In this document: positions 919 through 64,000 of the stretch, in pieces
Layout: each line of letters opens with the position of its first letter
Numbering within the stretch: position 1 is the stretch's first letter
Source: Calditrichia bacterium
GTDB lineage: Bacteria; Calditrichota; Calditrichia; JAJRVZ01
NCBI GenBank assembly: GCA_963712885.1
Contig: CAVQJT010000010.1
Coordinates: forward strand, 68,249 to 132,248
DNA: 64,000 nucleotides
Direction: 5' to 3'
Notes under the pieces: model-generated
Seen by the model: the letters and a program-made list of their open reading frames with translations, nothing else
Told to the model about the DNA's origin: nothing
Database searches by the model: none
Position numbers and translations under genes: made by a program

Positions 919-1116
919 CGAGGGCAAGATACTGCCCCACAGGCTGGGGCTGAATTCATGCGTATGGAGAGCCTGATCGTAAGAAAAAACTACATTGTCT
1001 CCTCAATTTAACGGTATATACGCTGCTTGGTAGAATAAAATTTGGTACATGGGACCTGATATCATATATTTATAATATATCCCTTTATTTCTATTCTTCT
1101 TGTAAGGAAATAAAAA

Positions 1117-6533: not shown

Positions 6534-6948
6534 CACAGAGGAATACATCAAAAAGATGAGCTTCCTGTTTATCAGCATGATGTTTTCGTAAACAATTAAG
6601 AATATTTTCAGTTCTGACATTATTTTCGTGAATCTTCGGGACTTCGCGTGGTCCCTCGTGTAATTTTCATATATCCGCTTTATCCCGGCTAAAAATTTCT
6701 CTCGTAACACTATTACACTCCTGCATTGCATTGCACCGATCCATTTCAATTCAAACACGGCGGTGATGCAGATTTTTACCCGGGAGCCGGCTGATTCTGC
6801 GGGCAAACTGACTTTTAAGCCGAGATTTAAAAGTATTGATCCGATTTACAGATGAATGTAAATTAAAAGCTTTATCCGAATCGTGATTTAGACGATTTTA
6901 ATTCAAGAAAGGTAAACCGTCAGGGTTACAAGAGACCGGAGTCAATGA

Positions 6949-38165: not shown

Positions 38166-38895
38166 TTAATTATTATTGCCCATAGCATATATTATGCCGC
38201 CAAATAGATGATTCAGGAAAAGCGTGTCCTGATAACTTTCTGGTGTGTGGCCTCCGGCCGTATACCAGGCACGCCCCTTGCCTACATCGTGATACCAGCT
38301 GAGAGGGTGATCCGCACCATTCCCCCCGCCTGTATATGAAGATTCATCAAGTGTGATCAATACCTTTATTCCCGGATCGAGCGGGGTTCTGAAATTATAC
38401 CACTCGTCTGTCCGTTCCCAGATATCCGGTAAATGTCTTGTCGACGGATGGTTTTTATCCCGTATAATCAGTCTGGCCGGCTGGACTTTTGGGTGATCCC
38501 TAAAATAGGTCCCCAGGAGTTTGCCATACCATTCCCAATCATATTCCGTATCACTGGCACCATGGAATCCCGGCGAAACCACCGCCATTTTCAATATATG
38601 TCCGCAGCGCCTGCTTCCCACCCGGACCAAGGACATTGCCACTGGTGTTCAGAAATACGACCGCGGCATAATTTTTCAGGATCTCATCGGTAAAAATCAG
38701 TGAATCTGCCATCGAATTCACAAGAATATTCTGTTCTTTGCCAAATTTTTTAATGGCGATCAGAGCCTGCGGAATACTCTTGTGGATATATTCATTGGTT
38801 TTAGTAAATACGAGGATGGATTGTGGTGTCTGGTCTTTTGTGCAACTCATTATCCAGATCGGAAAGAAAATAAGCATTAAAGATCGGCGCGTCAT
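38166..38895 (-). CDS. ThuA-like (trehalose-utilisation, class-I glutamine-amidotransferase-like fold) secreted protein, frameshifted near 38600.
   Basis: ILVFTKT..AVVFLNTSG..ENGGGFAGIH in ORF 38551..38895; ITLDESSYTGG...WYTAGGH in ORF 38166..38642. Confidence 0.5.
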
Positions 38896-40800
38896 CTTAC
38901 GAATAACATTTTTATTGAATGGGATAACTTTCCGTCAACCGTCATCGTACAAAAATACATACCTGAAGAAGATATAACGCCCTGCCCGTTGCGTCCGTCC
39001 CATCCAACCCGTTTTGTACCGGCCGGCTCACGGCCGTTGGACAGGGTGATGATCATTTCGCCGGATGTATTGTAAATTTGCAGGACAACATGTGCGGGTT
39101 TGCCGATACTAAATGTTATGATCGTGGATGGATTGAACGGATTCGGATAATTTTGTCTGAGGACATAAGATCGGGGTGCCTCAGGCACGCTCTCCCCATC
39201 GATCGAGGCAGCAGGCCCGAGTCGATCTTCCAGTTGTGCCAGATAAAGCGATCTGGGCTCCAGACCTGCCTGATTTGTACCTTCGATGTAGCCTTCCGGC
39301 ACCGGAAAAGGCGCCGGTGGGCTGATTCCGGTTATATCACCTGAGCAGCCGATGGCATAATTTTGTCCGGTCGGCGGTTTCTGGATGGTCAGGTTGCCTG
39401 CTGCGACATCACAATTCCAGGCCACACCATGTACCAGCGCCCAGCCGTGGCTTGTCCCGTAATGTCCCCGGTTGTATAATCCCAAGAGACGAGGATTATA
39501 GCCCGGACGGGGTCCATCCAGTTCAACGACATTGTCATATAAAAGTGCCTGACTCCATTGGCGATGCCCCTCGCTGCTGGCATATGCTCCTGATGAGGTG
39601 CAGTCCAGAAATACACAACCGGAAGTCCAGCTGGTGCCGTTTGACATATAATGATGCCTTCCATTGGTGGCATGGCAATCCCTGACCAGAATCTGCTGTG
39701 ACGCATTATACAGACTGGAAATTGTACATGTTGCCACCGTCGATTGGTGCAACCGGATCCAGTGCCTGGCAATTCTGAATGGTAATGCGGGTGGCGGTAT
39801 TCGTTCTGAAACCGGACAGTCCAAAATGCAGTACGGTGCAATTGCGTACCCAGGCATCCTCGATCTGAAAGAGATCGATGGCGTTCCAGGCATGATTCTG
39901 ATCAACACCGCCGGCGGTTACAATATCAATCCGCAAATTTTCAATACCGATGTGATTCCGGATTCCCAGACGTCCGTAACGATAAATAAAGGATTGTGAC
40001 AGTGAACGAATCAAATGGTTGTATACGGGAACATCTATGGTGATGGTATTTCCCTCGATGGCAGTAATATACCGGTTGAACACGACAGGCTGGCTGTTTA
40101 TGGCCCAGGGCAGATCCACACCGGGTTCTGCAGCCGGGAGATACCAGAATGTACCTCCGGTATCAACCGCAGATAACCAGGCTGCTGTGCAGGGATGATA
40201 AATTATAATATTGTCACCAACATTATAACCTGATGCATCCGCAACCTCAAAGGTTTTTTCACCAATCAATACCGTATCAGAAATAATGTTAACGTTCGAA
40301 CCGGCATCACCGTCGGACCATTTGGTTTGTGCCCCGCCGCCGGCGACTAAAACCGTCCTTTTTGTTGGCGAATTACCGGTCGCTTTCAGGATCGTATTTG
40401 TTAATGGGTTGTCACCATCTCCCTCACCTCTCAGAACAACACCATCGAAGCCAATTTTAATTGTACCGTTGATTTCATACTCCCCTGCTTTAAGCAATAG
40501 TGCGCCATGAAACCCGTTGCTGTCCGGGGGCATCATGGCCACTTCAAACAGGGCATTTTGAATCAGGGTCGTATTGTCGCCTGAGACGGGTTCAAGGATC
40601 TTAACAACGGGTACGTCCGGAATCCTTTCGGCTGAATTTTTATACCCGGCATAACTGAAATCAGGGATGCGGTTGCCGCTGGAATCGGCAACGTAAACCA
40701 GTTTCTCATCATTGCCGCGATACACGATCTTCGACTCCCAGGCAGACAGATTTGTGCCAAAGACCAGTACCGCGAGGCAAAATAGTATTACATTTTTCAT
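38892..40800 (-). CDS. Right-handed beta-helix (pectate-lyase-fold) secreted protein with a T9SS C-terminal domain; frameshifted near 39700-39900.
   Basis: Signal peptide and beta-helix repeats (NCTVLHFGLSGF..) in ORF 39706..40800. C-terminal ORF 38892..39908 ends with LRQNYPNPFNPSTIITFSI... Confidence 0.6.
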
Positions 40801-40804
40801 TCAA

Positions 40805-41002
40805 TTCACCTGTTTTTGTGGATTTCGACAGGATAACAGGATTGACAAGATATACAATTTTCACGAAGTACCACGAAGAATAGCGAAGATCCACGAAGTA
40901 ATTTCAGTGAAAACAAATCAATTAATTTATGTTTTCTTCGTGACATTTTTCGTGTTCCTTCGTGTAATATCTTCAGAATCCTGTTTATCCTGTTATCCTG
41001 TC
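40805..41002. repeat. Intergenic palindromic element of about 200 bp, bounded by inverted repeats (GACAGGATAACAGGAT ... ATCCTGTTTATCCTGTTATCCTGTC). Its interior is made of CACGAAG / CTTCGTG arms. MITE- or REP-like.
   Basis: Inverted repeats and internal palindrome read directly from the sequence. Confidence 0.7.
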
Positions 41003-41010
41003 AAAAAAAA

Positions 41011-43713
41011 TTACTTTACCAGGATCATTTTTTTCACTTCCCGGTACTCACCCGCGGCAAGTTGATAATAATACACCCCGCTGGTCAGGTTTTTACCGTT
41101 AAAGGTAATGGTGTAACTCCCCGGATTCATTCTCCCTGATACCAGGGTTGCGACCTTCTTTCCCAACAGATTGTAAACCGATAATTCCACATGGCTGCTA
41201 ATTGCCAACTGCCAGCTGATGACGGTCGATGGATTAAAGGGATTGGGATAATTCTGATCCAGTGACGCGTAGACTGTCGGAACTGTATGCCTAACCGTAT
41301 CGTAATTTATATTTGTTACCGGGGCCCAGCCAAGGTCCCCCATCGCTTTACCGTCATCGGCCTTACCAATGGCCGGTGAGTTGACTGCCAGCGCAAAATT
41401 ACCATCCTCACGGTTACTGTAAAGCGGATCTACAGAAAGCATTCCGGCACCTATTTTCGCAGAACGAGAGACGCTTACCGTTCCGACCTGAAACGTATCA
41501 CAATAGGAAACAGATGCGGTTAACCCGTATAAACGAATTGATTCCTGACCGCTGCTGTTGCTGAAGATACTGTTTTTTATGGTGGTAAAATCACATTCCC
41601 AGGCATTGATTATGGCAGCATCGGGATTGCCGCATTCGTCAACCGTGACATGGTCGATCACGACAACGGGACTTGGGGTAAAGGGAATCTCATCACCACC
41701 ATAAATGAATATCGCTTCCAAGCCTGTTTTCCAGAACGTACAATTTTCGATGATCATTTGATCGACATTGAATTTGCCGCTTCCCACCGCCTCATCGGCC
41801 AGTTTTATTCCAAAACTGTCGGCACGATAGAATTTACTATTTGTAACGTATATAGTGTCTGCGACCGATCCCTGGTGCCCATACAGAATACTGCCCTCAA
41901 CATCGTGGAAAAAGCAACTGTCAATGTGCAGTGTATACTTCTTTGTCATCATTTCCGTCTGGGTCGCAATCAATTTGCGCGCCGGTGTTGCTGTACCAGC
42001 CATACCATCCAGTTCAAGTCCGATAAGCCTCAGGTTTGTTCCTTCGTTCAGTTGAATGAGTAAGCGATCGGGTGAATCACTTTCAGTGTTCCGGATCACC
42101 GGCTGGCTGACCAGACCTGTTGCGGCACGTATGGTGACTTTTTTATCGATGATCAAAACCGATGAATTTTCGTATATCCCACCACCGGTAATCAATTCAA
42201 TAATTGCATTATCATTCACGTTTTCCAGCGCTATTTTCAGGGAATCGGGTCCGGCCTGGACATAAACGATATCTGGTGGCTTGGGTCCCGGAATTTCCCA
42301 GTCCGGTCCCACATCTTCTGCTGTAAGCGGACGTCTGGTAATTGGATCGGTCGAGGCCTCATCAGCGCCGATATCCTTTTCTGTCAAACGATTCTGGCCA
42401 TCCATATCCATCGAAACTGCCGGATAATTGTCTGCCGCCGCACCGATTACCGGGCTTTCCGGCAGCGGACGCCACAATCCGTCTTCGGCTACCGCCATCA
42501 GCGGATCGACTTCCAGAATACCACCCGGATTTTCAATACCAAGGATCCCATACATGATGTTGGCTTCCCAGAACATATTTATTGGCTGGTCCTCTTCATA
42601 AATCATTTTCACGGTCGATTTGCCAAGATTGTTTGCAATAATGCAGTCTTCCGGGGGAAGCGAAAGTTCGGCATTTTCACCAGCACCAATGACGATCGTA
42701 TTGTTGCAATCAATAATCGTATTGTACAATACCTGAGCCCGTTTTACCTGAAAATACCGGTTCAGAGGCGAATTGGGCACGCCGTTCATGATCGAAATGG
42801 CTGCTCTAAGGCCGGTCCCGGCCAGATCCTGAAAGTAATTGTTGTACACCACATGATCCTCGCCGATGATCCGGACACCGCCGGTTCCACTTTTGAAATT
42901 GCCGATAAAAAAATTTCCTTCCACTGTGGCAAAATTCCCGTGTCGCATGGTCAGTGTCCCGTCACATTCGTAAAAGGTATTTGACCGGAAGGTATTATGT
43001 CCTGATTTATTGGAAATGATTTCCGTTTCGCCGTCACAGTGTTCAAAATAATTATATTCAACTACAGAATACGAATCGGACATGGAATAATCGCTGGTTC
43101 CGATGCGGATCGTTTCGCCGCCGTTGAATCCAAGTGGTGGCCGATGACCAAAATAATTATGATCGATCTGGTGATAATGTGCCGGGGGATTGTACATCCG
43201 GTCAAACCAGATCACCAGCGTTGTCCCGGAATGGTTTTTACCGGCAAAGTAGCAATGATCGACTCGGTTATTTGCACCGTATAATGATATCCATTTATAG
43301 TCGGTATTTATGCTCTTCGGATTGTAATTGAGGATCACTGTATTGGATAAACGGCAATAATGACTATCGCCGGCGCCCGAGCGAAATTCAATTACCGCCC
43401 CCGATATGGCATATCCATCCCTGAAAAACAGGCCGTCAGCAACCAGATAAGTTCCGCCGATTCGCAGGGTTGAAGTCCCGGTGAGTACAACCTGTCCGGG
43501 TTCACCGGCACGCAAAAGAATGGGCTGTTCCTCGGTTCCATTTGCTTCAAATATAATTTGCTGATTGATCCATTCCCCGCTGGTCATTGTTAGCGTGTCT
43601 CCCGGCTGGATACCGGTCAGTACAGCGGTTATTTCCGCGCTGGAAGAAACAATGAATTCACTGGCCTGTAAGGATAGTGAAACTAAGATAGCGATCCAAA
43701 CAACAATTTTCAC
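41011..43713 (-). CDS. PL6-family polysaccharide lyase (alginate / chondroitinase-B-type beta-helix) with a second beta-helix domain and an intact T9SS C-terminal domain.
   Basis: PL6 catalytic-region pattern EYNYFEHCDGETEIISNKSGHNTFRSNTFYECDGTLTMRHGN...GGVRIIGEDHVVYNNYF...MNGVPNSPLNRY. C-terminus is LDQNYPNPFNPSTVISWQL... Confidence 0.75.
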   Translation of the reverse strand: MKIVVWIAILVSLSLQASEFIVSSSAEITAVLTGIQPGDTLTMTSGEWINQQIIFEANGTEEQPILLRAGEPGQVVLTGTSTLRIGGTYLVADGLFFRDGYAISGAVIEFRSGAGDSHYCRLSNTVILNYNPKSINTDYKWISLYGANNRVDHCYFAGKNHSGTTLVIWFDRMYNPPAHYHQIDHNYFGHRPPLGFNGGETIRIGTSDYSMSDSYSVVEYNYFEHCDGETEIISNKSGHNTFRSNTFYECDGTLTMRHGNFATVEGNFFIGNFKSGTGGVRIIGEDHVVYNNYFQDLAGTGLRAAISIMNGVPNSPLNRYFQVKRAQVLYNTIIDCNNTIVIGAGENAELSLPPEDCIIANNLGKSTVKMIYEEDQPINMFWEANIMYGILGIENPGGILEVDPLMAVAEDGLWRPLPESPVIGAAADNYPAVSMDMDGQNRLTEKDIGADEASTDPITRRPLTAEDVGPDWEIPGPKPPDIVYVQAGPDSLKIALENVNDNAIIELITGGGIYENSSVLIIDKKVTIRAATGLVSQPVIRNTESDSPDRLLIQLNEGTNLRLIGLELDGMAGTATPARKLIATQTEMMTKKYTLHIDSCFFHDVEGSILYGHQGSVADTIYVTNSKFYRADSFGIKLADEAVGSGKFNVDQMIIENCTFWKTGLEAIFIYGGDEIPFTPSPVVVIDHVTVDECGNPDAAIINAWECDFTTIKNSIFSNSSGQESIRLYGLTASVSYCDTFQVGTVSVSRSAKIGAGMLSVDPLYSNREDGNFALAVNSPAIGKADDGKAMGDLGWAPVTNINYDTVRHTVPTVYASLDQNYPNPFNPSTVISWQLAISSHVELSVYNLLGKKVATLVSGRMNPGSYTITFNGKNLTSGVYYYQLAAGEYREVKKMILVK

Positions 43714-44037
43714 GTTTGTACTTTTCCTTATATTACCTTCTGTCTCAAATGTTATACAGTAGGAATCTTCCTTTGTGTAGATTCAGATTTTGAACGAAAG
43801 AAGATCCTTCCAGGATGACCGGGTGGTATATTTTATCCAAAAATCTCAGTGCCAGTTGTCATTGCGAGGAAATCGCCGGAGGCGGCTGACGAAGCAATCT
43901 ATTGTAAATATTTACATAATGAGATTCCTTCGCTACGCTCGGATGACAAAAATACATATTTTTCAGAAGCACCAACCAAGAAAAAAATAGCCGAATAGCA
44001 TAACGCCTATCCGGCTATTTAGGATTAACCCACCAAT

Positions 44038-45490
44038 TTATTTTACAAACATCATCTTTTTGACCAGCGTATTGCCGGCAGTTTGAAGCCGATAAAAATA
44101 TACACCCGTAGCCGCATTTGTGGGCTGCCAGTTGACCGCGTGGGTACCGGCATTTCTGAAACCGTTGGCCAGCTGCGCAACACGGGATCCGGTAATATCA
44201 TAAATTTCCAGGATCACATCTCCCGGTTCAGCCAAGGAGAACGCTATCGTTGTTGAAGGATTGAATGGGTTCGGATAGTTCTGGTACAAGACTAAATTCA
44301 TTTGGAGTCAGGTTATCGGTATCAGATCCAATGCTGACCATTGGATCCACCCAGCGCAGATCTCCCAGAGGCCCACCGTCATGCCCTTTTCCGTAAGCCG
44401 GGGATCCTGGAGTCAGTGTATAATCCATATTGACGGCATCGGCATAAAGCGGATCGAATCCATAAATCGTGGTTGTATCGACTGTCCCTCCTTTTACACA
44501 ACTGATACGGCCTGATTCCGGAGAAGGTACTCCAAAAATCATATTTATGGTATCTACGTGACTTATGAATGAACCAACACCCTGCAATTGAACAACATAA
44601 TCCGCCCGCTCGGCACGGGTGAGTTTGGGCAGGCGGCTGTTGGTGACAAGAACATCCCTGAAGATTGCTCCGGCATTATTCTTAATATAAGCCATACGGG
44701 TTCCGGAATTATTTACCGTGAGATTCTCGATCAATACATAAGCGTCTTCCGTTTCGGTATTCGTATCGGCATAAAACCGGATACATTCGGAAGAGATATT
44801 TGTGAACGTACAATTACGAACAATCAAACTATCCACGACCCTTTCGACGGCATACTTTTCTGTTTCACTCATACGTATCGCTTCATCACCTATGTCATAA
44901 AAAGTGCAATTTTCCATGCGAACAGTACCCGCTTTTAATATGGGTTCGCCGGATCCGGGGGCAAGAAAATACAGGGCATGGCCTTCGGCCTCTCCTTCCT
45001 TATCACCGTTATCATAAAAATTGCGGAATACACAATTCTTGACAATGATATTCAAACCTTCCTTCGCGTAGACCCGCGGTACCTGAGAATCAGGTCCATG
45101 ACCTAAACGAATACCGTGTTTGAGGCCGCGTGTGGCTGCCGGGTGCATGCCATCGAAAATGATACCTTCAAAGGTCACATCATCATGACAGCGAAACATC
45201 TCAATAGTTCCGGAATCGGCATCACTATGTGTAAGGATTGGCATTTCGGCCAGCCCCGGCTTCGCCATGATAACGACCGGCTTTTTGATCTGAAAATAGA
45301 CCGTATCGGATGTTGTATAGACACCGCCTGAAGTGGAAAGCAATAAGGTATCGATATTGTTACTGGCTGCATAATCCAGGGCCAGTTTGAAGTCATATAT
45401 GTCCTCCACTTCAATTTTGCTGGCAAGGACCGTCTGTCCGATAAAAGCAAACATTAAGATAATCAGTAACGGTAACAAAATTCTCTGCAT
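44038..45490 (-). CDS. Beta-helix T9SS cargo protein, frameshifted just before the C-terminal domain near 44230-44300. Family unassigned.
   Basis: Signal peptide, NCTF/NCVF beta-helix repeats. C-terminal motif GFDPLYADAVNMDYTLTPGSPAYGKGHDGGPLGDLRW is shared with the giant protein at 60031..64000. Sorting domain is in ORF 44038..44301. Confidence 0.6.
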
Positions 45491-47188: not shown

Positions 47189-48238
47189 TTAATCAATCGC
47201 GAAACCGATCGAAAACCGGTGCACCGGATCCAGAAAATCCCCATAATCACTATAGGCGTAATCGACCCGGTACTGATCATAGGCCAGGCCGAAACCGGCG
47301 GAAAAACTTTCCGAATCATAATTGATCTTATATCCGCCGCGCAGGAATAGGATGTTCTGGAATCCATATTCCAGACCGATATTATACTGCTGATCGAAAT
47401 CCCGGGGTTGTACCATATCAAAAGCCACCAGTAATGTCTGATTCTGTGAGTCAAAAATCATGCTTTCGCTGGATCCGATCAGATACGTCGAAATGCCGAT
47501 ATTAAAGGTCTGAGGAAGCGGATATCCTTTTCCACTGTACTTCTGATAATAGGTTACATTGTTAACGGGGTCGTATCTTGCCAGATCAACCTCATCATAA
47601 AATTTTACTTCCGGACCGAAATGACGGATGACAGCTGAGATTCTCAGCGACCGGAATCCCGTATCATACAGCAATCCGCCATCGAAAGCGACATTTCCGG
47701 TGCTTCTCACACCCAGATCTTCATGGGCATATTTTACAGTCAGACCAAAACTGAATTTTTCGGTCAAGCCGCGGGCATAAGTCAAGCCAATCACCGTGGC
47801 GCGCGGTTCGATCACCTCGCCGGTATATCCGAGATAAGTGTCGCCGACGAAACCCAGGGCATCCACCGTTGTCACTTTTATCTCCCCGGCATCGGTCCGC
47901 AAGCCCTGCAATCCAAAAGTACCGATACCCGGCACCGTATAGGCCGCTGAGATGGCAGTGTGGTAAATATCCAGGAACCAATCAAGATAAGCGGCTGAAA
48001 AATCCATATTTTTTACACCTACAATAGCAGCCGGATTGTAAAATAATCCTTCAGAATTATTGGCAACTGCGGTAAACGCCTCTCCCATCCCGGCTGCGCG
48101 CGCATTTGTGGTCACCTTCAGAAACTGAAATGAGGTGGTACCTACTTTTTCGAATCCCCATACCTGAATGGAGCCAATCAGTATTAAAACAATAATGGGT
48201 ATGCTGTATCTTTTTCTAAGTGACATGTTTTTCCTCAC
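47189..48238 (-). CDS. porV: PorV-family outer-membrane beta-barrel (T9SS shuttle-protein family).
   Basis: ARAAGMGEAFTAVANNSEGLFYNPAAI matches the PorV/LptO N-terminal signature. About 350 aa. C-terminal aromatic residue. Confidence 0.6.
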   Translation of the reverse strand: MRKNMSLRKRYSIPIIVLILIGSIQVWGFEKVGTTSFQFLKVTTNARAAGMGEAFTAVANNSEGLFYNPAAIVGVKNMDFSAAYLDWFLDIYHTAISAAYTVPGIGTFGLQGLRTDAGEIKVTTVDALGFVGDTYLGYTGEVIEPRATVIGLTYARGLTEKFSFGLTVKYAHEDLGVRSTGNVAFDGGLLYDTGFRSLRISAVIRHFGPEVKFYDEVDLARYDPVNNVTYYQKYSGKGYPLPQTFNIGISTYLIGSSESMIFDSQNQTLLVAFDMVQPRDFDQQYNIGLEYGFQNILFLRGGYKINYDSESFSAGFGLAYDQYRVDYAYSDYGDFLDPVHRFSIGFAID

Positions 48239-53510: not shown

Positions 53511-55790
53511 TCAATGTTTAATCAAATATAGGTTGCCGGGCCGGACTTCAAGCGTCGGGAACCATTGGTCCAATCCGAGATCTGCGGATTTTATTGGTGG
53601 TTCTGAACTTAACTTCTGTAATGATCTTCCCAGATACTGAATTATATCACCGGAAACAGCGAAATTTGTGGGTTTCTCAAAACTGAAATGTGCCCCTTCA
53701 CGATGATATTCTTTTGTGTTCAGGAAAATACTGCCCCAGGCATCATGTCTGGCGACCCAGCCTTGACCTTCTTTTTGCCGGTCCGAGATTGGTGTAATTC
53801 GCCAATCACCAATTTGAACTTTACCATCACCACTCTGAACAACAGATTTTCTTTCTGAATTCTTATAAGGCACAATTAACGTGAGAAATGAAAAATTATC
53901 CTGCTCGCAACACTCAATGATTGTGCTGGATTTTTCCCGAAATCGCAATTCACGACGGGACAAATCCGAATCTCCAAGTTGAATGAGTTTTACACCACTC
54001 CCATCCTCATATTGCTTATCCCAGATATTCTCTGCGTGATCGTCAAAATTACCCTGCCAGACCTGCTGATAAGTATGGCGCAGACCCGATTCAAAATGAT
54101 CGACCAGGATCCAGAATCCCTCATGAAAATAAATGATCTCCCGGTAGTAAGTCACATCGAGCGAATCAAAACCGTTATGGGTGCCGATAAAATGCTCAAA
54201 CCGTTCCATTTTGGACCATGAAATGACTTTTGGTTGCGGAAGAGATTTCCATTTACCAAAACCAGATTTTCCTTCATTCTGTTGCCAGCCCTGCCCCTGG
54301 ACGTGATTATCCACAAGAGCAACATTTTTCACCCAGGAATTTTTGAAAAAGGCATAATCTTCCGCATTGTATTTTACCTGGTAATTCGGAAGTATTTCAT
54401 GACCGTTGGCATAGCCGACGATGCCGAGCATATCACCATGCTGATGATCCGGTTTTTTTTCAGATAAACCTGCGGTTACGGTCAGATAAACCGCGTCGTC
54501 ACCCCAGCCGTTTCGCATGATATAATAGCCGGTTTCGGGTAGCTCACAAGAGAGCATTTCAGGTTTAGATGGTTTAAGATCCTGTGTCGCACCTAATTGC
54601 ACCGAACGCAATAACCAATATACCTCAGCGTTAATCCGATCACCTGAGAAGTATTTAAATACCGGATCGTTAAAAACAATCGTACCAAGGATCATGACCT
54701 CATCCATGGCATTATTCTCCGCGAATGGTTTATCGGTATCATCCTGCAGCACCGGAAGACGGCGGTTTGGTTGGGCTAATTTAACCAAAGATTCAAAGAG
54801 TTTACGAAATTGCTGTTCATATATTTCAGGCAGCGGGATATTATTGATCCGGGCCAGCTGAAAAACACGAAAATAATTGTCCACATCACCTTTATGGTAG
54901 TGGACCGATCGTTCAAATTGAAAACCATCGGGATTGACCTCATTGGTCAGATGCCAGACCAGGCCGTTGATGGCATGCCTGAGCCAGATATCTGTTCCCG
55001 AAAACTCCGGAAAAAGGACAGCAATTTCAAACAGTGCCACCAGACCGCGGGTATGATGATTGCCATAACGCATTTTTTTTGAGCGTTTATACAACTGGGC
55101 CCCATGATGCAAAAACGTACGTATCAGAAGACGTTGTTCTTCCGGATTATAGGCTGGTGAAGCCAGAAAGGCATGATGACAAAACAACCAGTTTTGTATC
55201 CGTCTCCCACCCCTGTAGACCTCATAGATACCGTTACCGGCATCGTCATAGGCATCTTCTGCAAAGGCGCGGTTCAAATCTGCGACCTGTTTTACAAAAT
55301 AATCCAGATAAACCCGTTTTTCATTTTCATAGTAATATGTGAGCGCCATATCGAATGATTTCTGCTGGCGGGCAAGATGGCGTAATTCATATGCCGTAAC
55401 CTCATCGCCGCGCAGATTTTTGAAAGGAAGTATCCATTTGGTCTCCGGCGCAAAGCGATCCATCTGATCCCGGGCAAGTTTAAGATGATCTTCCTGCTTG
55501 TCTGGATATTCATGAAGATATTGGGAAAAACGCTCCCGAAAGAAGTGCCAGTCAAAATAATACCTGTCCGAAGATTTTTCCTTCAAAAAGCTGGTCAGTT
55601 TATCCAGCGCCTCTTTTGTTTGTCCGGCATCCCTCAGGTCATATACTTCTTGAAGAGCGGCAATCGAATCTTTTAAGGCATATATCAATTCCATTTCATC
55701 GGGCACTCTGTCCAATTTGATATGGTCACCGGACCATAGGGTTGCGGTCAATAATAGAATTATGATTATAAAATATATCTTCATTATCAT
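53511..55790 (-). CDS. Heparinase II/III-like polysaccharide lyase (PL12/PL15/PL17-type toroid plus beta-sandwich).
   Basis: 759 aa, signal peptide. DHQHGDMLGIVGYANG resembles the conserved His/Asp region of heparinase II/III-like domains. Length and alpha-then-beta organisation fit. Confidence 0.55.
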   Translation of the reverse strand: MIMKIYFIIIILLLTATLWSGDHIKLDRVPDEMELIYALKDSIAALQEVYDLRDAGQTKEALDKLTSFLKEKSSDRYYFDWHFFRERFSQYLHEYPDKQEDHLKLARDQMDRFAPETKWILPFKNLRGDEVTAYELRHLARQQKSFDMALTYYYENEKRVYLDYFVKQVADLNRAFAEDAYDDAGNGIYEVYRGGRRIQNWLFCHHAFLASPAYNPEEQRLLIRTFLHHGAQLYKRSKKMRYGNHHTRGLVALFEIAVLFPEFSGTDIWLRHAINGLVWHLTNEVNPDGFQFERSVHYHKGDVDNYFRVFQLARINNIPLPEIYEQQFRKLFESLVKLAQPNRRLPVLQDDTDKPFAENNAMDEVMILGTIVFNDPVFKYFSGDRINAEVYWLLRSVQLGATQDLKPSKPEMLSCELPETGYYIMRNGWGDDAVYLTVTAGLSEKKPDHQHGDMLGIVGYANGHEILPNYQVKYNAEDYAFFKNSWVKNVALVDNHVQGQGWQQNEGKSGFGKWKSLPQPKVISWSKMERFEHFIGTHNGFDSLDVTYYREIIYFHEGFWILVDHFESGLRHTYQQVWQGNFDDHAENIWDKQYEDGSGVKLIQLGDSDLSRRELRFREKSSTIIECCEQDNFSFLTLIVPYKNSERKSVVQSGDGKVQIGDWRITPISDRQKEGQGWVARHDAWGSIFLNTKEYHREGAHFSFEKPTNFAVSGDIIQYLGRSLQKLSSEPPIKSADLGLDQWFPTLEVRPGNLYLIKH

Positions 55791-55892
55791 TTACTTATCA
55801 ACATGAGTGTCCGGTTTAATAAAAATTTAGTGTATTTTAAAAAATTCATCTTTTAATCTACATTTGTTGACCCTCCCCTGGCCCGCCGAAGG

Positions 55893-55919
55893 GGGCCTAT
55901 CCCCTCCCTAATGCGATTA
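55893..55919. other. Perfect GC-rich hairpin (CCCCTCCCTAAT gcg ATTAGGGAGGGG) in an AT-rich intergenic region. REP-like or terminator-like.
   Basis: 12-bp perfect stem and 3-nt loop read directly. No clear U-tract. Confidence 0.5.
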
Positions 55920-56189
55920 GGGAGGGGACTAAGGGGTGGGTAATTTCCAGGAAACTCAAATCGAGTAACTCTTTTCCGGTCGTGTTAAAATGCTTCCTGA
56001 TGAAGTTCTGTAAGGTGTGTATGCTTTTTTAACCGGACACTTGTGATTTATCCAATGGTTCAATTTTATCCATCATACCTTCCTTTTATGTTTACAAGAG
56101 ATTGCTTCGTTACTCCGCACCTACTCGAGTGCGAGTAGGTGAAGGATTCCTCGCAATGACAGCGTAGACTGAATTAATCAAAAGTCTCA

Positions 56190-57954
56190 TCATTTTAATA
56201 TAAAAATTTTCATAACCGCTGAGGCATACGCAGATTTCACACTCAATAAATAAATCCCGGTCGATAATTTATCCGAACCAATTGAGAACAGATGTGAACC
56301 AACGGAATATCCCCTAAAAATCTTCCTGAAGGCCTGCCTTCCCAGAACATCATAAATGATGATCTCGATATCCGATGCCGCTTTTAGATCGACATGAACC
56401 GAGGCAGTGGAATTGAACGGGTTTGGTGTAATACGCATCGAAAGATCGAGCTGCATTTCGCCTTTCAATACCCTTTTCCGGAATAGCATCTATGATATCT
56501 CTGGCAAAGGGTCCGACATCTGCTTCACTAAGAATTGTGCGGATCACGGGATCATCGCTATACTCATCTGCACCGATATCGGTCGGCAGGCTTCTCTTCT
56601 GCCCTTCAATATCATCCGAAACATAATCAAAATCACCGGATGCGGCATCGATTGCCGGACTTTTCGCATCAGGATGCCAGAATCCATCTGTTTTGATCAT
56701 CAATGGATCACTTATCAGAATCGAAGCAGAATCAACACCAATACCTACGGTACCCGCATTGCCGGGATAAGCCAGATTTGTCTGCCATATCATGTTGACC
56801 GGGTCGGTAAATGTGTTTATAAGGGTAGTCGAATCGGAAACGATAAGATTGTGTGCCATGATGACATCACGGGGTGGTTTGGTGTATGCGCCGTTATTCG
56901 TATATCCGATCTCGATCGGATGGTCGTTTTGTATCAGTGTGTTGTGGACAATTTCAGCCCGATTGATACGAAAATGGCGGCTTAAATTGGTACCACTGTC
57001 ATAATCACCATTGGTAAGGGTCAACCCCGCATCCCATTTTGTACCGGTAAGACGGGTAAAATAGTTGTTGTAAATTTTATGATCATCTCCGTATAGACGC
57101 ACGCCTCCTGTTCCGGTCTTTTCCTCGCCCAGGAAAAAATTGCTTTCGACCACCGATCCGTTTCCATGACGCAAACAGAGCGAACCCTGACATCGTCTGA
57201 AAGTATTATATCTGATGGTATCGGCGCAGGTTTTTACGGAAATGATTTCCGGGTCACCATCACAATTTTCAAAAAGATTGTATTCAACAACCGTAAATCC
57301 ATTGGACATTGACATTTCACTCCAACCGACCCTGATCGCCTCCATTCCGTTCTCTATCCTTGGGCCCGTATTCCGTAAATGGTTATGGTCAATACGATCG
57401 TATTTTGATGACTGGTAAGTTGGTTCAGGTGAGCCATCGATCGTAATAAAATTTCCGGGTTGATGTTTCTCTTCAAAGAGATTATGATCGATCCGGTTAA
57501 ATGCCGATATGGCATTAGGATCATTCCAAATGCCCCCGATCACGATCCATTTTGATGATTCAGACTCAGTTAAGCGAAATGTATTCCGTGTCACCCGAAT
57601 ATTATCGCATGCTTCCATTTTGATGGCCGAATATGATGCTGTCGTGATCAAAAACCCCTGAATAATCACATGGCTGGCCTGTTTGAGGCCAAAATAGGTG
57701 TCACCAGCCAGTTCGACTTTACCAATATCTGCGGCGGTAATTACAACCGGTTGCTCGGTGGTGGCCTTAACCGTGATGGTCATGTTTCCTGGATCATATA
57801 CACCCGCGGCGACTTCGATACGATCACCCGGCAGAGCCATCTGGACAGCAGATTTTAATTGCGAAGCGGTCGAAACACGAATCAGGCGCAAATACGGCCA
57901 ATCTTCACCGAGCAGAATAGAACCATATAGCAGGATTGATAGAATTGTTTTCAA
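56190..57954 (-). CDS. PL6-family polysaccharide lyase with a T9SS C-terminal domain; frameshifted at the catalytic-domain/sorting-domain junction near 56350-56490.
   Basis: EYNLFENCDGDPEIISVKTCADTIRYNTFRRCQGSLCLRHGN..GGVRLYGDDHKIYNNYF..TNGDYDSGTNLSRHF. Sorting domain in ORF 56190..56489. Confidence 0.7.
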
Positions 57955-58271
57955 TATTCTAGATCAAAGATTGAGTAGACTCGAAAAAGCCCCGATTACG
58001 AAGTTATCATCCCGAACTCGTTTCGGGATCAACTGTTTTTACCGGACTTACAGATGCTGAAATGAATTCAGCATGACAATATTGCACTATTCAGAGTGCA
58101 TTCAAGATTAAAGATTTACTGTTTACAGAGCAAAATAGCGTAAGAAAGCGACCGGGGGCAACGCGCAGGTTTCTTATATTACGCCTGCTCTTAAATTCCT
58201 AATTTCTAATTTCTCATTCCTCATTTCGCATCCCTGCCAACTGCTTGCCCGCCGGAGGCGTGGCCAACTGC

Positions 58272-59297
58272 CTACCGCTGAACCCTGCCTGAAATATCTC
58301 CTTTTACAATCGAAAGCACTTCATCTTCACTGACCAGATTCATATCACCGGGAATAGTCTGCTTTAGTGCCGATGCCGCCACGGCAAACTCCAGCGCCCT
58401 TTGTTTGTCCCAGCCCTCCAGCAAGCCGTGAATCAGGCCGGCACCAAATGAATCGCCCCCACCGACACGGTCCACAAGATGTATTGGATACTTGCGGCTT
58501 AAAAAGTATTCATTTCCATCATATAACATGGCTGACCAGTTATTATCTGAAGCGGAGAGACTTTCTCTCAAAGTAATGGCAACATCTGAGATCTCAGCCA
58601 GATCTTTCACCTTTGCAGCCACTTCCTGAAAGTGATCGGTCGAAAGGTGACCGCTTGTTACATCCGTCGTATCGGCTTTGATGCCAAATACATCGGCAGC
58701 ATCCTCTTCGTTGGCGATTACAACGTCAATATACTGAATGATCTCACTCATGGTCCGTTTTGCCTGGTCGCGGCTCCACAGTTTTTTACGATAATTCAAA
58801 TCACAACTGATCCGGAGGTCCGATTTTTTTGCGATCCGCACCGCGTCAAGACAGGTTGCTGCGCTGCCTTCAGATAAGGCAGGGGTGATTCCCGTGATAT
58901 GGAACCACGCCGCATTTTCGAAGATCTTCGGCCAATCAAACATCTCAGGTTGAATTTCTGCCATCGCCGAACCGGAGCGGTCATAAGTCACTTTCGAAGG
59001 TCTGATCGATGCGCCATGTTCCAGAAAATAGATTCCGATCCGTTCCCCGCCCCTGATAATAAAAGCGGTATCAACCCCATATCCGGCAATCGTTTTAATA
59101 GCCGCATCACCCAGCGGATTATCCGGAAGACGGGTAACAAAAGAAACATCATTCCCATACTGCGACAGCGAAACGGCAACATTCGCTTCCCCGCCCCCAT
59201 ATGTTGCCTGAAACGTATTGGTTTGCAAAATACGTTCGTAATTGAACGGTGCCAGGCGTAACATGATTTCGCCAAAAGTCACTATTCTTTTTTTCAT
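58272..59297 (-). CDS. kdgK: 2-dehydro-3-deoxygluconokinase (PfkB family).
   Basis: PfkB motifs (GGGEANVA; DRVGGGDSFGAG). KdgK-like length. Adjacent to eda. Confidence 0.8.
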   Translation of the reverse strand: MKKRIVTFGEIMLRLAPFNYERILQTNTFQATYGGGEANVAVSLSQYGNDVSFVTRLPDNPLGDAAIKTIAGYGVDTAFIIRGGERIGIYFLEHGASIRPSKVTYDRSGSAMAEIQPEMFDWPKIFENAAWFHITGITPALSEGSAATCLDAVRIAKKSDLRISCDLNYRKKLWSRDQAKRTMSEIIQYIDVVIANEEDAADVFGIKADTTDVTSGHLSTDHFQEVAAKVKDLAEISDVAITLRESLSASDNNWSAMLYDGNEYFLSRKYPIHLVDRVGGGDSFGAGLIHGLLEGWDKQRALEFAVAASALKQTIPGDMNLVSEDEVLSIVKGDISGRVQR

Positions 59298-59312
59298 TTT
59301 TGCTTCAATAAC

Positions 59313-59972
59313 CTATTTTGATCTACCCTCTTTTACGGTTGTCACAAATTCAGAAGCCCGTATTGTAAGCTGCTCCCATTCTGATTCCGCAATCATTTTC
59401 TTATCGAGCAATGCGGTTCCGACACCAAGGCAGCAGGCACCGGCCCTGATAAACTCTGAAGCGTTTTCCAAGGATACACCCCCTGTTGGTGTCAGTCTGA
59501 CCTGCGGCAGAGGTCCATGAATATCTTTAAAATACTTTGGACCGAGCGCGGTCGCGGGAAATACTTTTACCACGTCGGCACCGTTTTCCCATGCGCACAG
59601 TATCTCTGTGGGTGTAAATGCGCCTGAAATCATTAACCGGTCATACCGATGCACAAGCCGGATCATGTCAGGATTGAGAACCGGACTTACCACGAATGTG
59701 GCGCCGGCCTGAATAACCATCCTGGCTGTTTCCGTATCCAGAACAGTTCCTGCACCGATCAGAAATTCACCATTATATCGATGCGATAATTGACTGATGA
59801 TCTCAGGTGCATTGGGGGTGGTCATGGTTATTTCTAATGCATGAATGCCGCCTTTGGTGAGCGCACCGATGATGCCCTCCAGTTTTGAAATATCTGCCAG
59901 ACGGATTACCGCAATGATGCCGCATTCCTCAATTTTTGCAAGGACTTCCGTTCTGTTCATGGCACGATTCAA
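59313..59972 (-). CDS. eda: 2-dehydro-3-deoxyphosphogluconate / 4-hydroxy-2-oxoglutarate aldolase.
   Basis: GIIAVIR..ALEITMTTP..GAGTVL...FVVSP...KVFPA Eda pattern; 219 aa. Confidence 0.85.
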   Translation of the reverse strand: MNRAMNRTEVLAKIEECGIIAVIRLADISKLEGIIGALTKGGIHALEITMTTPNAPEIISQLSHRYNGEFLIGAGTVLDTETARMVIQAGATFVVSPVLNPDMIRLVHRYDRLMISGAFTPTEILCAWENGADVVKVFPATALGPKYFKDIHGPLPQVRLTPTGGVSLENASEFIRAGACCLGVGTALLDKKMIAESEWEQLTIRASEFVTTVKEGRSK

Positions 59973-60030
59973 CTCCGATTTCGAATGAATAAAACGTTGC
60001 CGGCCGGATGACCGGCAACGTTGAAAGCGG

Positions 60031-63000
60031 TTATTTGATCATCATCATCTTCTTAATGTCACTGAATTCTTCTGATTGAATGCGATAAAAGTATAATCCG
60101 GTAGCAAGTTCCGGATGATTAAAGACCAGTTTATGTTTACCGGCCGGCATCTGTTGATCGACGAGTGTAAATATCTCGCGGCCAAGAATGTCATAAACTT
60201 TAATCGTCGTTTTGCCTGCTTTTTTCAGATCAAATCGAATCGTCGTCTGTGGGTTGAACGGATTCGGATAGTTCTGATACAGGGTATATTCGGTTGGGAT
60301 CCCATTGAGGTCTTCGATAGCATCTACCATCTGGAATTTTACACCAACCGTTTTATTTCCATCCATGGTAATGGTCTGCGGGTTGACAGCACCGGTCAGA
60401 TCTCCCGTCCATTCAACGAACTCATAGGAGGTATCCGGTACAGACTGTCAGGGTAACTACCTGGTCCGGATCAAAGGTTTTACCTACAGGAGCCGGGTCA
60501 AAAACAACTTTTCCTTCACCTTCAATGGTTACCGCCACCAGAAAATGCGTTGGTGTGTTGGTTGCCCATCTCAGATCGCCTGCCGCTTCACCATCGTCGC
60601 CAATATCGTAAGCATGGGAGGCCGATAAAAGCGTATAATTCCTGTCCCCCGGTGCTTCGAACAGCGGATCGAATTCCCAGATCAGAGTAGTATCCAGTGT
60701 CGCACCGACTTCCAGGTCAATATTCGTACTGGCATTATTGATAACCAGATGCGAGGCTGATGATGCTTCACCGTACAATCTGATCACATCGTTATGACGT
60801 GCAGACAGGAACATCTGATTTGTAATAATGCAGTTCTTTATCTCAGCATTCAGTACACCTTCGGGATAAAGGACGCGGTAATTCTGATTCCAACTCGCAG
60901 AGTCAATCGTGCAGTGATTGATCATGAGCACCATGTCATTATTATCACGCACTCTCACAGCTTCCCGACCTGATCGGATAAAGGTTGTGTTTTCAATTCT
61001 GGCATACTTAACCGTGTTGGGATCTCTCATATAGATGCCTTCGTTTTTGCATTCCCTGAACATGCTGTTGGTAATGATCAGTGTATCCACAAATGACCCG
61101 GCATAGATCTTTACCCATACCTCGCCTGAATTGTAGATATAACAATCGTTAATCCTGATCTCTGTTTTTACCGTATCGTCATCTGTCCTTAAAGCATACT
61201 TGGCATCATACATTTCAATACCATCCAGTGAGAGACTGGTACCACCGACTCTGATCTGGAAAATACCATCTGAATAACCCAGATCCGGATTACCTTCAAT
61301 TTTTGGCCGTTCCGCAAGCCCTTCTTTCGCCATTATGGACAACGGAAAATCAACATCGATGTTCTCATGTGCCTTATATACGCCACCCGAGGTGGTCAAT
61401 ACAATATGTTTTACCTGACTGTTGTTGCGGGCAAAATCAACAGCCTCAGCCAGGCTTTGGGTGGTATCGATCTCAAGTATGCCGCCGGGGACAGAGATCT
61501 CACTGAAGGTAACCGTTACATTCACATCACTGTCCATTGTCACGATCGCCGTGTCATTCGCACTGGTAATATCACCAGACCAGCCGTCAAATTTAAAACC
61601 ACCAAGCGGCATGGCAACCATCGTTACTACAGTGGAAGAATCGTAACTTTCATAGTAGGGATAGGGTTCAGGATCGTAGCTGACCTCTCCTTTACCTACG
61701 ACCGTAAGATTGATCTTAAATTGTGTTTCAATCGGTGTAAAATTGGCGGTAACGCTTAGGTTTGATGTTACCGATATGGTATCCGGATTATTTGATCCGG
61801 TAAGATCACCTGTCCACTCGGTGAATACCATCGCAGACGTATCAGACACGGCGGTCAGGGTGACATCGGTACCATCATAATAGGAAAATATACCGGCCGC
61901 GCTGTCGGCCTGAGCTGGCGCCGGTGCCAGATCCACATGACCGATCCCGATTGCCGAGACCGTCAGGGTAAACAGATCCTTCAAGGGGACAAAGAAAACT
62001 GTAACGGTCAGATCGGAGTTCATGGTGACCGTTCTTACCTCTGTATCCGGCGGAAAAGCAGCCGGTTCCCACTTGGATACCTTTGAATCAGCCCCAGGTT
62101 TTGCGGTCAGGGTAACAACCGTTCCCGGATCATAATAGGGGCCGGCCGGACTTGCCTCTACAGTTCCGTTTCCGTCCGTAAGAAGCGTTAACAAAAATTG
62201 ATTCGGATCTGTTTCCCAGCGCAGATCGCCCATCGCTTTGCCGTCATCCGCAGCACCACGGGCCGGGGATGTCAGGGCAAGACGATAATCACCACTTGAC
62301 GGATCCTTGTACAGCGGATCTTCGTCGATCATACCTCCACCGATTGAAGACGATTCACCTGTATCGACCGGTCTTACATTAAAGGTATCGGTGTAGGAAA
62401 TTGTGGATGTGCCGTAAAGATCAACGGATTCCGTATTCGTACCCATTTGATTTGACATGATGCAATTCGTAATGGTGGCATTGGTGACATACAGGTCGCC
62501 CCCGTCCATACGGATTACACGATCGTTCTCAATGGTTGCAGTTGAATCCATGGTAACATGATTGATAATTACTTCTGGATTATAGCCAACCGCAGCACTA
62601 CCGAACTGTATCGCCTCACGTCCGGTATTGGTAATGGTAACATTTTCAAACAGTACGTAGTTCATTGCAGGGCCGTCACCGCCAGTATCATAGAAATTAA
62701 ATCCTTCCCGTAAAGCATTTCTGGCAATTGAGTTTGTTACAATACATGTATCGACAACAGTTTTCAAATAGCCCCGTACAAAGTTTTCGGTATAATCGTG
62801 AAAATAACAGTCATCGACCTTCAGAAACATGTAGGTGGAATCACCGGCAATCAGACGGACAGCCTGTTTGGAATAGGGAGTTCCGCTGCCATCGCCGCTA
62901 CCATCAAACTCCAGGCCGATCAGGGTTAGACTACCGCCGGAGAGCACCTCGAAATTACGGGTGTTGGAACTACTAGTTGGCCGAAGATTCCGGATAATTG

Positions 63001-64000
63001 GTCTCTGGGTCAGCCCTTCCCGCGCTCGGATTGTAAGAACTTTATCAATTTCAATCTTATCGAACTCTTGCGTGTATACGTAAACACCACCATTGTCCAT
63101 CAATTCAAGAATATCACCACTCTCGGCTGCCTGTACGGCATCATAAAGCGTATTATCCCCGGCATACACCTTATGAACGGTTGGCCCCTGAGCGTACGGA
63201 TCCCAGCGCAAATCGCCCATGGCTTTGGCGTCATCCGCCATGCCAAGTGCCGGTGATCCTTCCTGAAGTGTATAGTCAAGATTAGCCGGATCTGTATACA
63301 ACGGATCTCCACTGATCATACCGCTGCCGATGGCTGCAGATTCGTTTAAATCGACAGGCCTTACATGAAAGGTATCACTATAGGAAACCGTGGAGGTACC
63401 GTACAACTGAAGCGAATACTGGTAAGCACCCATCTGATTGGATATAATGCAATTTTTTATGGTTGCATTTGCAACAGCTATGGTGCCGGGGTTTAACCTG
63501 ATCACCCGATAATCACCCCCCTGGGAGGTGGAATCCATGGTGACATGGTTGATAATCACTTCCGGGTTATATCCTACATCAGCACTGCCGATCTTTATCG
63601 CTTCACGGCCGACATTTGTAATCGTAACGTTCTCAAACAGGGCGTAATTCAAAGCCGGCCCACCACTGTTGGTGTCATACAGCATCCAGCCTTCCCGTAC
63701 AGAGCCGGTACTGACCGAGTTTTGAATGATAAAAGTATCGACGACGGTTTTGGTATAGCCTCTGAGGAAATTTTCGGTATAATCATGAAAATAGCAGTCG
63801 AATATTTTCAGGACCATTGAGGTGGAGTCGCCGGCAGTGAGACGAATTGCCTGTTTGGAATATGGGGTCCCGCTGCCATCGCCGCTACCGTCGAATTCAA
63901 GACCGATTAGGGTCAGAGTGCCCCCGGATAGCACTTCGAAATTACGTGTGTTGGTACTCGAAGTCGGACGAAGACTACGGATAACCGGTTTCTGTGCCAA
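60031..64000 (-). CDS. Giant multi-module beta-helix T9SS cargo protein; 1192 aa are visible and the N-terminus lies beyond the window edge. It has three beta-helix modules plus Ig-like spacers. A frameshift near 60430 separates the body from its sorting domain.
   Basis: ORF 60422..64000 is open to the window edge. Modules 1 and 2 are about 70% identical at protein level. The C-terminal domain in ORF 60031..60366 is LYQNYPNPFNPQTTIRFDL.... Confidence 0.65.

Follow-up and report, generated by a model that had tools for sequence, protein, structure and literature searches.

Three adjacent genes for secreted beta-helix proteins were analysed in a 64-kb stretch of DNA from an uncultured member of the Calditrichota (assembly GCA_963712885.1, contig CAVQJT010000010.1; this whole stretch is called the window below), and they are labelled C, B and A in the order of their transcription. 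The C-B-A stretch is ordinary and evolutionarily conserved, and lies within an alginate-degrading gene cluster. The most probable reading (at roughly 80%) is that the region forms the central part of an alginate (polyuronate) utilisation locus that has been conserved by vertical descent, the spacers of which have been colonised by repeats and in which the breaks seen in A and C are artefactual. The first-pass annotation had described three head-to-tail genes for beta-helix cargo of the type IX secretion system (T9SS), each with its own signal peptide and sorting domain, and had proposed a cassette-like array possibly assembled by recombination at shared sorting tails. The three spans and the co-orientation, all on the minus strand, agreed exactly with the list of open reading frames (ORFs), and the assignment to T9SS beta-helix cargo was likewise borne out. 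The leaders and tails were also found, but A and C are split by frameshifts that had been missed.

44038..45490, minus strand: gene C, 483 aa after correction of one base, with a signal peptide, a beta-helix and a type A sorting tail (44038..44283).
41011..43713, minus strand: gene B, an intact 900-aa ORF with a GTG start, predicted two-domain PL6 alginate lyase, consisting of a signal peptide (residues 1-17), a PL6 catalytic beta-helix (22-388), a second beta-helix (DUF4957/Beta_helix/DUF5123, ~490-800) and a sorting tail (41011..41256).
38892..40800, minus strand: gene A, 635 aa after correction of one base, with a signal peptide, a right-handed beta-helix and a sorting tail (38892..39155).

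The order of genes in related genomes supports this reading. On the 5' side of C lie genes for a TonB-dependent receptor, a 748-aa T9SS cargo protein, a PorV/PorQ-family protein (47189..48238; NF033709, 180 bits versus a cut-off of 90) and a FadL-like protein, and on the 3' side of A a ThuA-like gene, whose start is overlapped by the stop of A, two PF05426 alginate lyases (Alginate_lyase), a GH88-GH2 fusion and a GHMP kinase. In three close relatives (L013/L014, L037 and L038) the same order was found, namely TonB-dependent receptor, 748-aa cargo, PorV/PorQ-family, FadL-like, C, B, A, ThuA-like, alginate lyase, GH88-GH2, alginate lyase and GHMP kinase, at about 80% protein identity (range 70-92%); the L038 locus is shorter and misses the upstream part of the syntenic block. 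A, C and the ThuA-like gene are intact in all three. The backbone is also kept in four distant, Ignavibacteria-like loci from metagenome-assembled genomes (MAGs), which belong to Melioribacteraceae (L001), Ignavibacteriaceae (L002) and two unclassified MAGs (L003 and L004). The C-B-A order with added modules was reported for three of these four, the exception being L002, which has C and B and no A; the L004 locus ends inside B. Such conservation indicates that the trio is an old block rather than a recent assembly. With regard to the host, all LeuS homologues that carry names are from Calditrichota, and no genome of the same species was found in the scan of genome contigs (best match 57% identical).

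Further upstream of C, additional genes of the same pathway and another cargo gene were identified:

53511..55790: heparinase II/III-type lyase (Hepar_II_III).
56350..57954: second PL6, single-domain.
58272..59297: PfkB kinase of the 2-keto-3-deoxygluconate (KDG) type.
59313..59972: 2-keto-3-deoxy-6-phosphogluconate (KDPG) aldolase.
60031..64000+: giant cargo protein, >1192 aa, with DUF5123 and Flg_new_2 repeats.

The genes at 53511..64000 complete the alginate-to-KDPG pathway, and the locus is a complete alginate or polyuronate utilisation locus. Within the 64 kb, the core T9SS genes porK/L/M/N and sov are absent and the PorV/PorQ-family gene is present; no SusD-like gene was seen adjoining the TonB-dependent receptor.

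All three proteins begin with signal-peptide-like leaders (MKNVILFCLAVLVFGTNLSA, MKIVVWIAILVSLSLQA and MQRILLPLLIILMFAFIGQTVLA), which were judged by inspection (a short N-end of basic or polar character precedes a hydrophobic core and a cleavage site resembling A-x-A), and each ends in a QNYPNPFNP... T9SS type A tail. With cut-offs of 27 bits for PF18962 (Por_Secre_tail) and 23 bits for TIGR04183, the B tail passes both models (39.5 and 36.1 bits). The tail ORF of C reaches 39.2 bits with PF18962 and is out of frame in the window owing to a one-base indel at AGCT. The A tail stays under the PF18962 cut-off (19.8 bits) and matches FlgD_ig at 31.9 bits; an 86%-identical ortholog of A (P0002) passes TIGR04183 with 30.2 bits.

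The description of B as a two-domain PL6 protein of about 900 aa was confirmed by Pfam and PDB matches. Its Chondroitinase-B domain (Chondroitinas_B, PF14592) scores 343 bits against a cut-off of 24, and alginate lyases of known structure (7o84, 8bwk, AlyGC 5gkd and BcAlyPL6 7dmk) are matched with E = 3.6e-118 to 6.6e-99. The motifs GETEIISNKSG and TLTMRHGN align with GEVEIISNKSG and TLTLRHGN of AlyGC, and an Arg of B stands opposite the Ala of the AlyGC R241A mutant chain. The aligned residues of B presumably have the catalytic roles of Lys220 and Arg241 in AlyGC. Thus, B is predicted from homology and locus context to be an active two-domain PL6 alginate lyase, with the catalytic Lys and Arg and the Ca-site motif intact. 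As in AlyGC and BcAlyPL6, both beta-helix domains are present and EIISNKSG and the R241-equivalent Arg are kept; B differs from them in its T9SS tail, in a second domain that is mosaic between close orthologues, and in the adjoining free-standing paralogue C (30%).

Pfam matches of C comprise Beta_helix, DUF5123, DUF4957 and Por_Secre_tail. It aligns with residues 492-900 of B at 30% identity (E = 2e-44), and the sole PDB match of a sequence search is a weak one to residues 450-644 of BcAlyPL6, its second domain. By these homologies, C is a free-standing counterpart of the second (accessory) beta-helix of PL6 enzymes joined to a sorting tail; it probably has no catalytic function and serves as a substrate-binding or accessory beta-helix. 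Additional C-like modules sit between C and B in L001, L003 and L004, and B is without its second domain in L002-L004. Judged from sequence, the module family formed by C and the second domain of B grows and shrinks across lineages. An origin of the second domain by simple fusion of an upstream C-like gene with PL6 was considered and rejected, since C-like genes lie upstream and the domain is C-terminal. The modules between C and B in L001 (6362-9331), L003 (7322-9256) and L004 (8294-9256) comprise a multi-module gene with 2-3 tandem copies of the beta-helix of C and the second B domain, and a second C-like gene.

For A, which had been left as an unassigned pectate-lyase fold, this label is fair and "distant PL29-like" is more precise. 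No Pfam catalytic domain was found, and the PDB sequence search gave no meaningful match. There are 1290 homologues, mostly of ~635 aa with Por_Secre_tail. The AlphaFold2 model of P0002 is a right-handed parallel beta-helix (mean local confidence, pLDDT, 87.4), for which the top Foldseek matches are beta-helix phage tailspikes and capsule lyases (E = 1e-12 to 1e-9), alginate epimerases ranking lower. The NCBIfam model of BT3328, a PL29 surface lyase of B. thetaiotaomicron (PMC6994673), is matched weakly by 35 of 38 family members (best E = 2.7e-11); the score of P0002 is 18 bits, for positions 408-618 of the 840-position profile, far below the equivalog cut-off of 1100 bits. By these matches, A is a distant relative of PL29, not a member, in a large uncharacterised beta-helix family with a tailspike-depolymerase-like fold, and is probably a further polyuronate lyase. 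Wherever a member was found in a related locus, it is encoded next to the PL6 gene. Like BT3328, A would be a surface-exposed beta-helix protein of a locus for uronic-acid polysaccharides; unlike BT3328, it is without the N-terminal spacer region of ~300 aa, is predicted to be anchored by T9SS instead of as a lipoprotein, and stands in the context of alginate rather than glycosaminoglycan.

The proposal that the array was assembled by recombination at the tails was not supported when tails and protein bodies were compared. In a neighbour-joining tree with bootstrap of tails from four genomes (the window, W, with L013, L037 and L038), the tails of A make up one clade (97% bootstrap), of topology (L013,(W,(L037,L038))), and those of C another (76%), in which the topology is the same. 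Both therefore track their orthologues. Moreover, the A, B and C tails are only 48-59% identical to one another at the nucleotide level, with exact runs of no more than 8 nt, and thus offer no substrate for recent homologous recombination among the three.

On the other hand, tail and body histories proved incongruent for B. Its tail pairs with that of an unrelated cargo gene near the start of the window (92.5% bootstrap), and the B tail of L013 falls outside this group. Between two groups of close B orthologues ({W, L037, L038} and {P0244, L013}), the PL6 domain is 86-88% identical (86-91% among all five), the second domain ~55% and the sorting tail 42-46%; the corresponding values to 13 more distant orthologues are ~65%, 44-47% and 27-47%. 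The closeness of the PL6 domain together with the divergence of the second domain and tail indicates that the C-terminal half of B was replaced in one lineage. A second case was found around the gene whose tail resembles that of B:

3424..3669, plus strand: sorting tail of the unrelated 850-aa cargo gene 1117..3669, closest to the B tail (81-83% at the amino acid and 74% at the nucleotide level).
491..926 (copy 1) and 3589-4023 (copy 2), plus strand: 436-bp direct repeat, 99% identical, flanking gene 1117..3669.

The repeat comprises the last 27 sorting-tail codons and 355 bp of downstream spacer, and is common to two cargo genes with unrelated bodies, one with a cadherin-like body and the other the 850-aa protein of unknown function. 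Immediately before the repeat, nucleotide identity between the two tails is ~72%. Gene conversion would account for this pattern, as would recombination in tail and spacer by which a cargo gene was inserted. Tail-level recombination thus does occur in the source genome, and nothing indicates that the C-B-A array itself was built by it. In a small sample from L002 and L004, the nearest relative of a cargo tail is often another tail of the same genome (58%) and not that of the orthologous gene, which hints at within-genome homogenisation or co-adaptation to the host T9SS.

The broader view that such loci form a cassette system, in which T9SS cargo genes are gained, lost and recombined via shared sorting tails and the repeat-rich spacers behind them, draws on the 99%-identical tract in two genes with unrelated bodies, the grouping of the B tail away from its orthologues, the mosaic structure of B, and the variable number of C-like modules and missing B second domain in distant relatives. 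It also has a precedent, as recombination-driven rearrangement of T9SS cargo domains is known in Porphyromonas gingivalis, where C-terminal modules of the gingipains and HagA are exchanged (PMC5266723); as in B and its orthologues, the exchange is by recombination between paralogous or unrelated genes. What would be exchanged here is different, namely the sorting tail itself together with the downstream spacer or with a beta-helix domain, and the setting is an environmental Calditrichota host and carbohydrate-active genes. Nevertheless, this view is unlikely to hold for the array, because C-B-A has kept its order and content in the three close relatives and in all distant MAG loci except L002 (without A), the A and C tails are congruent with species relationships, the three tails have diverged from one another, and the elements vary from one spacer to the other and from relative to relative, and hence are not shared recombination sites within the array. 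An equally doubtful extension is that the 3' end of the tail and the repeat-laden spacer constitute a portable recombination handle in Calditrichota, perhaps more widely in the Fibrobacterota-Chlorobiota-Bacteroidota group, at which putatively mobile ACAGGATAA/CACGAAG palindromes may mark the junctions. If true, such a handle would allow tails, tail-plus-domain modules or whole cargo genes to be swapped or duplicated between unrelated secreted proteins.

The two spacers contain the following elements, which include candidates of the repetitive extragenic palindrome (REP) and miniature inverted-repeat transposable element (MITE) types; a further arm was found elsewhere in the window.

43982..44024, minus strand: intrinsic terminator of C from a terminator scan, a GC-containing 14-bp stem located directly behind the stop codon and followed by a U-run (-19.4 kcal/mol, z = -5.0).
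43855..43952, minus strand: REP-like compound hairpin of ~95 nt (-29.2 kcal/mol, z = -4.2).
43745..43825, minus strand: weak inverted repeat GTCATCCTGGAAGGATCTTC ... GAAGATTCCTAC, no better than chance (z = -0.7).
~40815..41010, no strand assigned: MITE-like palindrome of ~185 bp, which fills the B-A spacer.
6605..6685, no strand assigned: diverged half-copy (one arm) of this palindrome, after gene 5619..6533.

The palindrome reported in the first-pass annotation at 40805..41002 is real. Its arms (40823-40851 and 40978-41006, 29 nt) are 86% complementary, and the whole ~185 bp folds as one RNA hairpin of -71.8 kcal/mol, compared with -38.1 for shuffled sequences (z = -8.2). The outer 9-nt ACAGGATAA repeats form terminal inverted repeats, and the interior carries CACGAAG/CTTCGTG heptamers every 10-11 nt (6 pairs observed versus 0.2 expected) and an AT-rich centre. 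Since the 324-nt and 210-nt spacers of two independent Logan assemblies are of the same length as those of the window, an assembly artefact can be excluded as the source of the palindrome. The orthologous B-A spacers lack it, the one of L013 being just 41 nt long and those of L037 and L038 unrelated in sequence; a related copy was found in the C-B spacer of L037, not in B-A. The B-A spacers of L037 (12683-13120) and L038 (4406-4832) are taken up by other short hairpin repeats (TGTCCCGGAGGGACA, CAGCCCCTCCGGGGCTG and TATCCGGAGGGATAA), unrelated to the palindrome of the window.

A metagenome scan with one terminus and one heptamer as the query identified 22 loci, in six of which (L017, L018, L025, L032, L033 and L035) a full palindrome was present, its complementary arm lying outside the query. 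In L032 and L035, both arms hold matching heptamer variants (CACAAAG/CTTTGTG). The palindrome is thus a member of a widespread, apparently undescribed modular repeat family; no published description of the element sequences was found, the literature matches being unrelated primers only. A target-site duplication was not found, as the flanks TTTTTTTT and GAAATCC are without a direct repeat and the empty site of relatives is not alignable. No transposase or REP-associated tyrosine transposase was seen among the window ORFs that were scanned, which are part of the total. Bacterial MITEs and the palindromes of REPs and bacterial interspersed mosaic elements (Correia, ERIC and REP, for example) are small, non-coding and intergenic, with inverted termini and multiple related copies. 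The B-A palindrome resembles them in its strong hairpin potential and in presence/absence differences between close relatives, and differs in the unusual combination of outer ACAGGATAA repeats and inner heptamers phased at 10-11 nt.

Several other sites were observed in the course of the scan. In L031 (1186-1534), two short ACAGGATAA palindromes lie in tandem, 122 nt apart, each followed by arrays of ATCCTGTAA repeats. Seven metagenome contigs (L022, L023, L024, L027, L028, L030 and L034) share, at their matches to the scan pattern, a different and conserved non-coding sequence of ~150 nt upstream of a gene, starting with the same ACAGGATAAACAGGAT motif and continuing with ...CACACGAAGCGGCGACAAGACCATTCGGC..., which may be a separate conserved element. 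In the Calditrichota contig L006 (10255-10285), TTTGACAGGATAAACAGGATGTTATAAT stands directly 3' of the stop codon of a T9SS cargo gene, and the element terminus overlaps a promoter-like TTGACA-N15-TATAAT arrangement.

The C-B spacer had been said to hold GC-rich hairpin repeats at 43745..43960. One supported hairpin is indeed present (43855..43952), but the spacer has 39% GC, compared with 44% for the window, and the repeat at 43745-43825 does not exceed chance expectation. In the supported hairpin, the motif GTCAT(Y/T)(S)CGAG...CGAAG(S)AATCT is present twice, in inverted orientation; relatives of this motif occur as a single copy at 56098-56160 and as a similar pair in metagenome locus L015. 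The weak repeat matches 855-890 and 3952-3987 with 83% identity over 36 nt. Together with the half-copy at 6605-6685, the copy in L037 and the 22 metagenome loci, these matches bear out the expectation that the spacer repeats are not unique to the locus. Spacer lengths vary widely among the window, L013, L037 and L038 (C-B: 324, 333, 468 and 79 nt; B-A: 210, 41, ~430 and 427 nt). The only feature conserved across the compared spacers is the terminator hairpin of C (CGGCTATT following AATAGCCG...), which was also found 3' of C in L013, L037 and L038, the 79-nt spacer of L038 containing the terminator only.

These observations are probably best explained by weak constraint on the intergenic DNA of the spacers, where small repeats able to form hairpins would have been inserted in a lineage-specific manner; most simply, the hairpin elements are selfish or neutral insertions. 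The possibility that they act instead as functional cis-regulatory RNA, such as attenuators, processing sites or mRNA stabilisers, appears improbable. The folds are very stable (-71.8 kcal/mol for the palindrome, z = -4.2 for the GTCAT hairpin), lie between co-oriented genes, and keep matching heptamer variants in both arms of unrelated copies (for example in L032 and L035). However, the hairpins do not occupy orthologous positions, the corresponding spacers being reduced to 41 nt (L013, B-A) and 79 nt (L038, C-B), and this lack of positional conservation argues against a regulatory role. Moreover, the palindrome family occupies a different spacer in L037, no U-run follows the palindrome on the sense strand, and Rfam gave nothing relevant for the whole window at gathering thresholds or for the spacers at permissive thresholds.

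The breaks in A and C were found to share one sequence motif. A is split into 39706..40800 and 38892..39908, with the downstream part in the +1 frame and the junction at 39712-39716; a tblastn comparison with an 86%-identical homologue of 636 aa placed the break at 39713-39718. C is split into 44228..45490 and 44038..44301, again with the downstream part in the +1 frame, and its junction at 44289-44293 detaches the sorting tail.

39712..39716, plus strand: AGACT site, a 1-nt insertion relative to AGCT, which breaks A in the middle of the beta-helix.
44289..44293, plus strand: AGACT site, a 1-nt insertion relative to AGCT, which breaks C at the boundary of the sorting tail.
395-399, 519-523, 18697-18701, 20918-20922, 35525-35529, 39712-39716, 44289-44293 and 60442-60446: the eight sites with 1-nt insertions at AG^CT, each of which splits an ORF.

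Deletion of the middle base of AGACT yields proteins of 635 aa for A and 483 aa for C. In the two Logan assemblies, in which B is 100% identical, A and C are called as genes of exactly these lengths, the 483-aa C gene carries Por_Secre_tail, and A and C each span 1 nt less than they do here, with identical spacers of 324 and 210 nt. Removing the middle base of every AGACT and AGTCT in the window and checking for ORF fusion also joined ORFs at 18697, 20918, 35525 (the GH88-GH2 gene) and 60442. At site 395 the gain in ORF length was smaller; the site was confirmed by rebuilding the tail of gene G0, which also required the AGTCT at 519 to be corrected. The insertions break the GH88-GH2 gene and also separate C and the giant cargo gene 60031..64000+ from their sorting tails. 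The 436-bp repeat reads CAGTCTGG in the copy with site 519 and CAG-CTGG in the other, which is exactly the difference between the two. Eight of the nine frameshifts detected in the window are at AG(A/T)CT, and such clustering at a single palindromic tetranucleotide speaks for a systematic error of assembly or base calling at AGCT. A platform-related cause, such as a methylated motif in long-read data, is plausible. The breaks in A and C are thus most likely artefacts of a systematic 1-nt insertion in the source assembly, as both genes are intact in the Logan assemblies. Programmed ribosomal frameshifting was rejected, since the motif lies in differing codon phases and mid-domain in unrelated genes, and since the independent assemblies are 1 nt shorter; a bias of the insertion towards the sense strand was also considered, and site 395 has the opposite orientation.

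The ThuA-like gene (38166..38895) behaves differently. It is frameshifted at ~38565 (ATTCCATGG), not at the motif, and the same frameshift occurs in independent short-read Logan contigs, where a 114-aa fragment is called. The gene is intact (241-245 aa) in L013, L037 and L038, its N-terminal part is 48-55% identical to relatives, and it looks like a genuine pseudogene in the source species. That A and C are likewise true pseudogenes in a decaying locus is very unlikely, for although their frameshifts are present in the deposited assembly (a 364-aa fragment is in NCBI/ENA as called) and this neighbour is broken, eight independent 1-nt insertions all within AG^CT would be extremely improbable under random decay, no further disabling mutations were found in either gene, the Logan contigs hold both intact, and the duplicated segment has AGCT in one copy and AGTCT in the other.

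Some observations weigh against an intact, vertically inherited alginate locus. The C-terminal half and tail of B have recombined, so that "purely vertical" is too simple for this gene. An exact look-up of the corrected A and C in the protein collection gave no match, and their intactness elsewhere is judged from Logan gene lengths, identical spacer lengths and Pfam calls. In addition, classical alginate catabolism needs neither GH88 nor GH2, and a mixed or glucuronate-containing polyuronide is a possible substrate.

Assuming that the locus acts on alginate or a similar polyuronate, C, B and A would be exported by Sec and then passed to T9SS via their C-terminal sorting tails, and would end up either displayed at the cell surface or released from it. 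B, and probably also A, would cut polyuronate chains by beta-elimination, and C may bind or present the substrate. The resulting oligomers could be taken up via the TonB-dependent receptor and finished by the PF05426 and heparinase-II/III-type lyases, with the products feeding KDG metabolism and KdgK and Eda completing catabolism. The PorV/Q-like and FadL-like proteins of the outer membrane would also take part, and the lyases of the pathway would include periplasmic and cytoplasmic ones. This arrangement resembles the alginate loci, or polysaccharide utilisation loci, of marine Bacteroidota. These likewise unite PL6 and further alginate lyases with a TonB-dependent receptor, KdgK and KDPG aldolase, and their extracellular lyases end in type A sorting tails; the secretion of alginate lyases by T9SS is well documented for them. 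The present locus differs in the Calditrichota host, in the PorV/Q-like, FadL-like and 748-aa cargo genes placed before the lyases, in that no SusD-like gene was seen, and in the GH88-GH2 fusion and the uncharacterised A family.

The value of these findings is mainly cautionary and incremental. Two "broken" genes of a public MAG are most likely intact, and the AGCT indels call for caution among users of this assembly, and probably of others made likewise, in which pseudogene counts would be inflated and sorting tails detached. What appeared to be a shuffled cassette array turns out to be a conserved alginate-utilisation block, which extends T9SS-linked alginate degradation to the Calditrichota. 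At the same time, the source genome provides concrete cases of sorting-tail exchange between unrelated cargo genes, and the A family, with more than 1,000 members, represents a candidate new lyase family.

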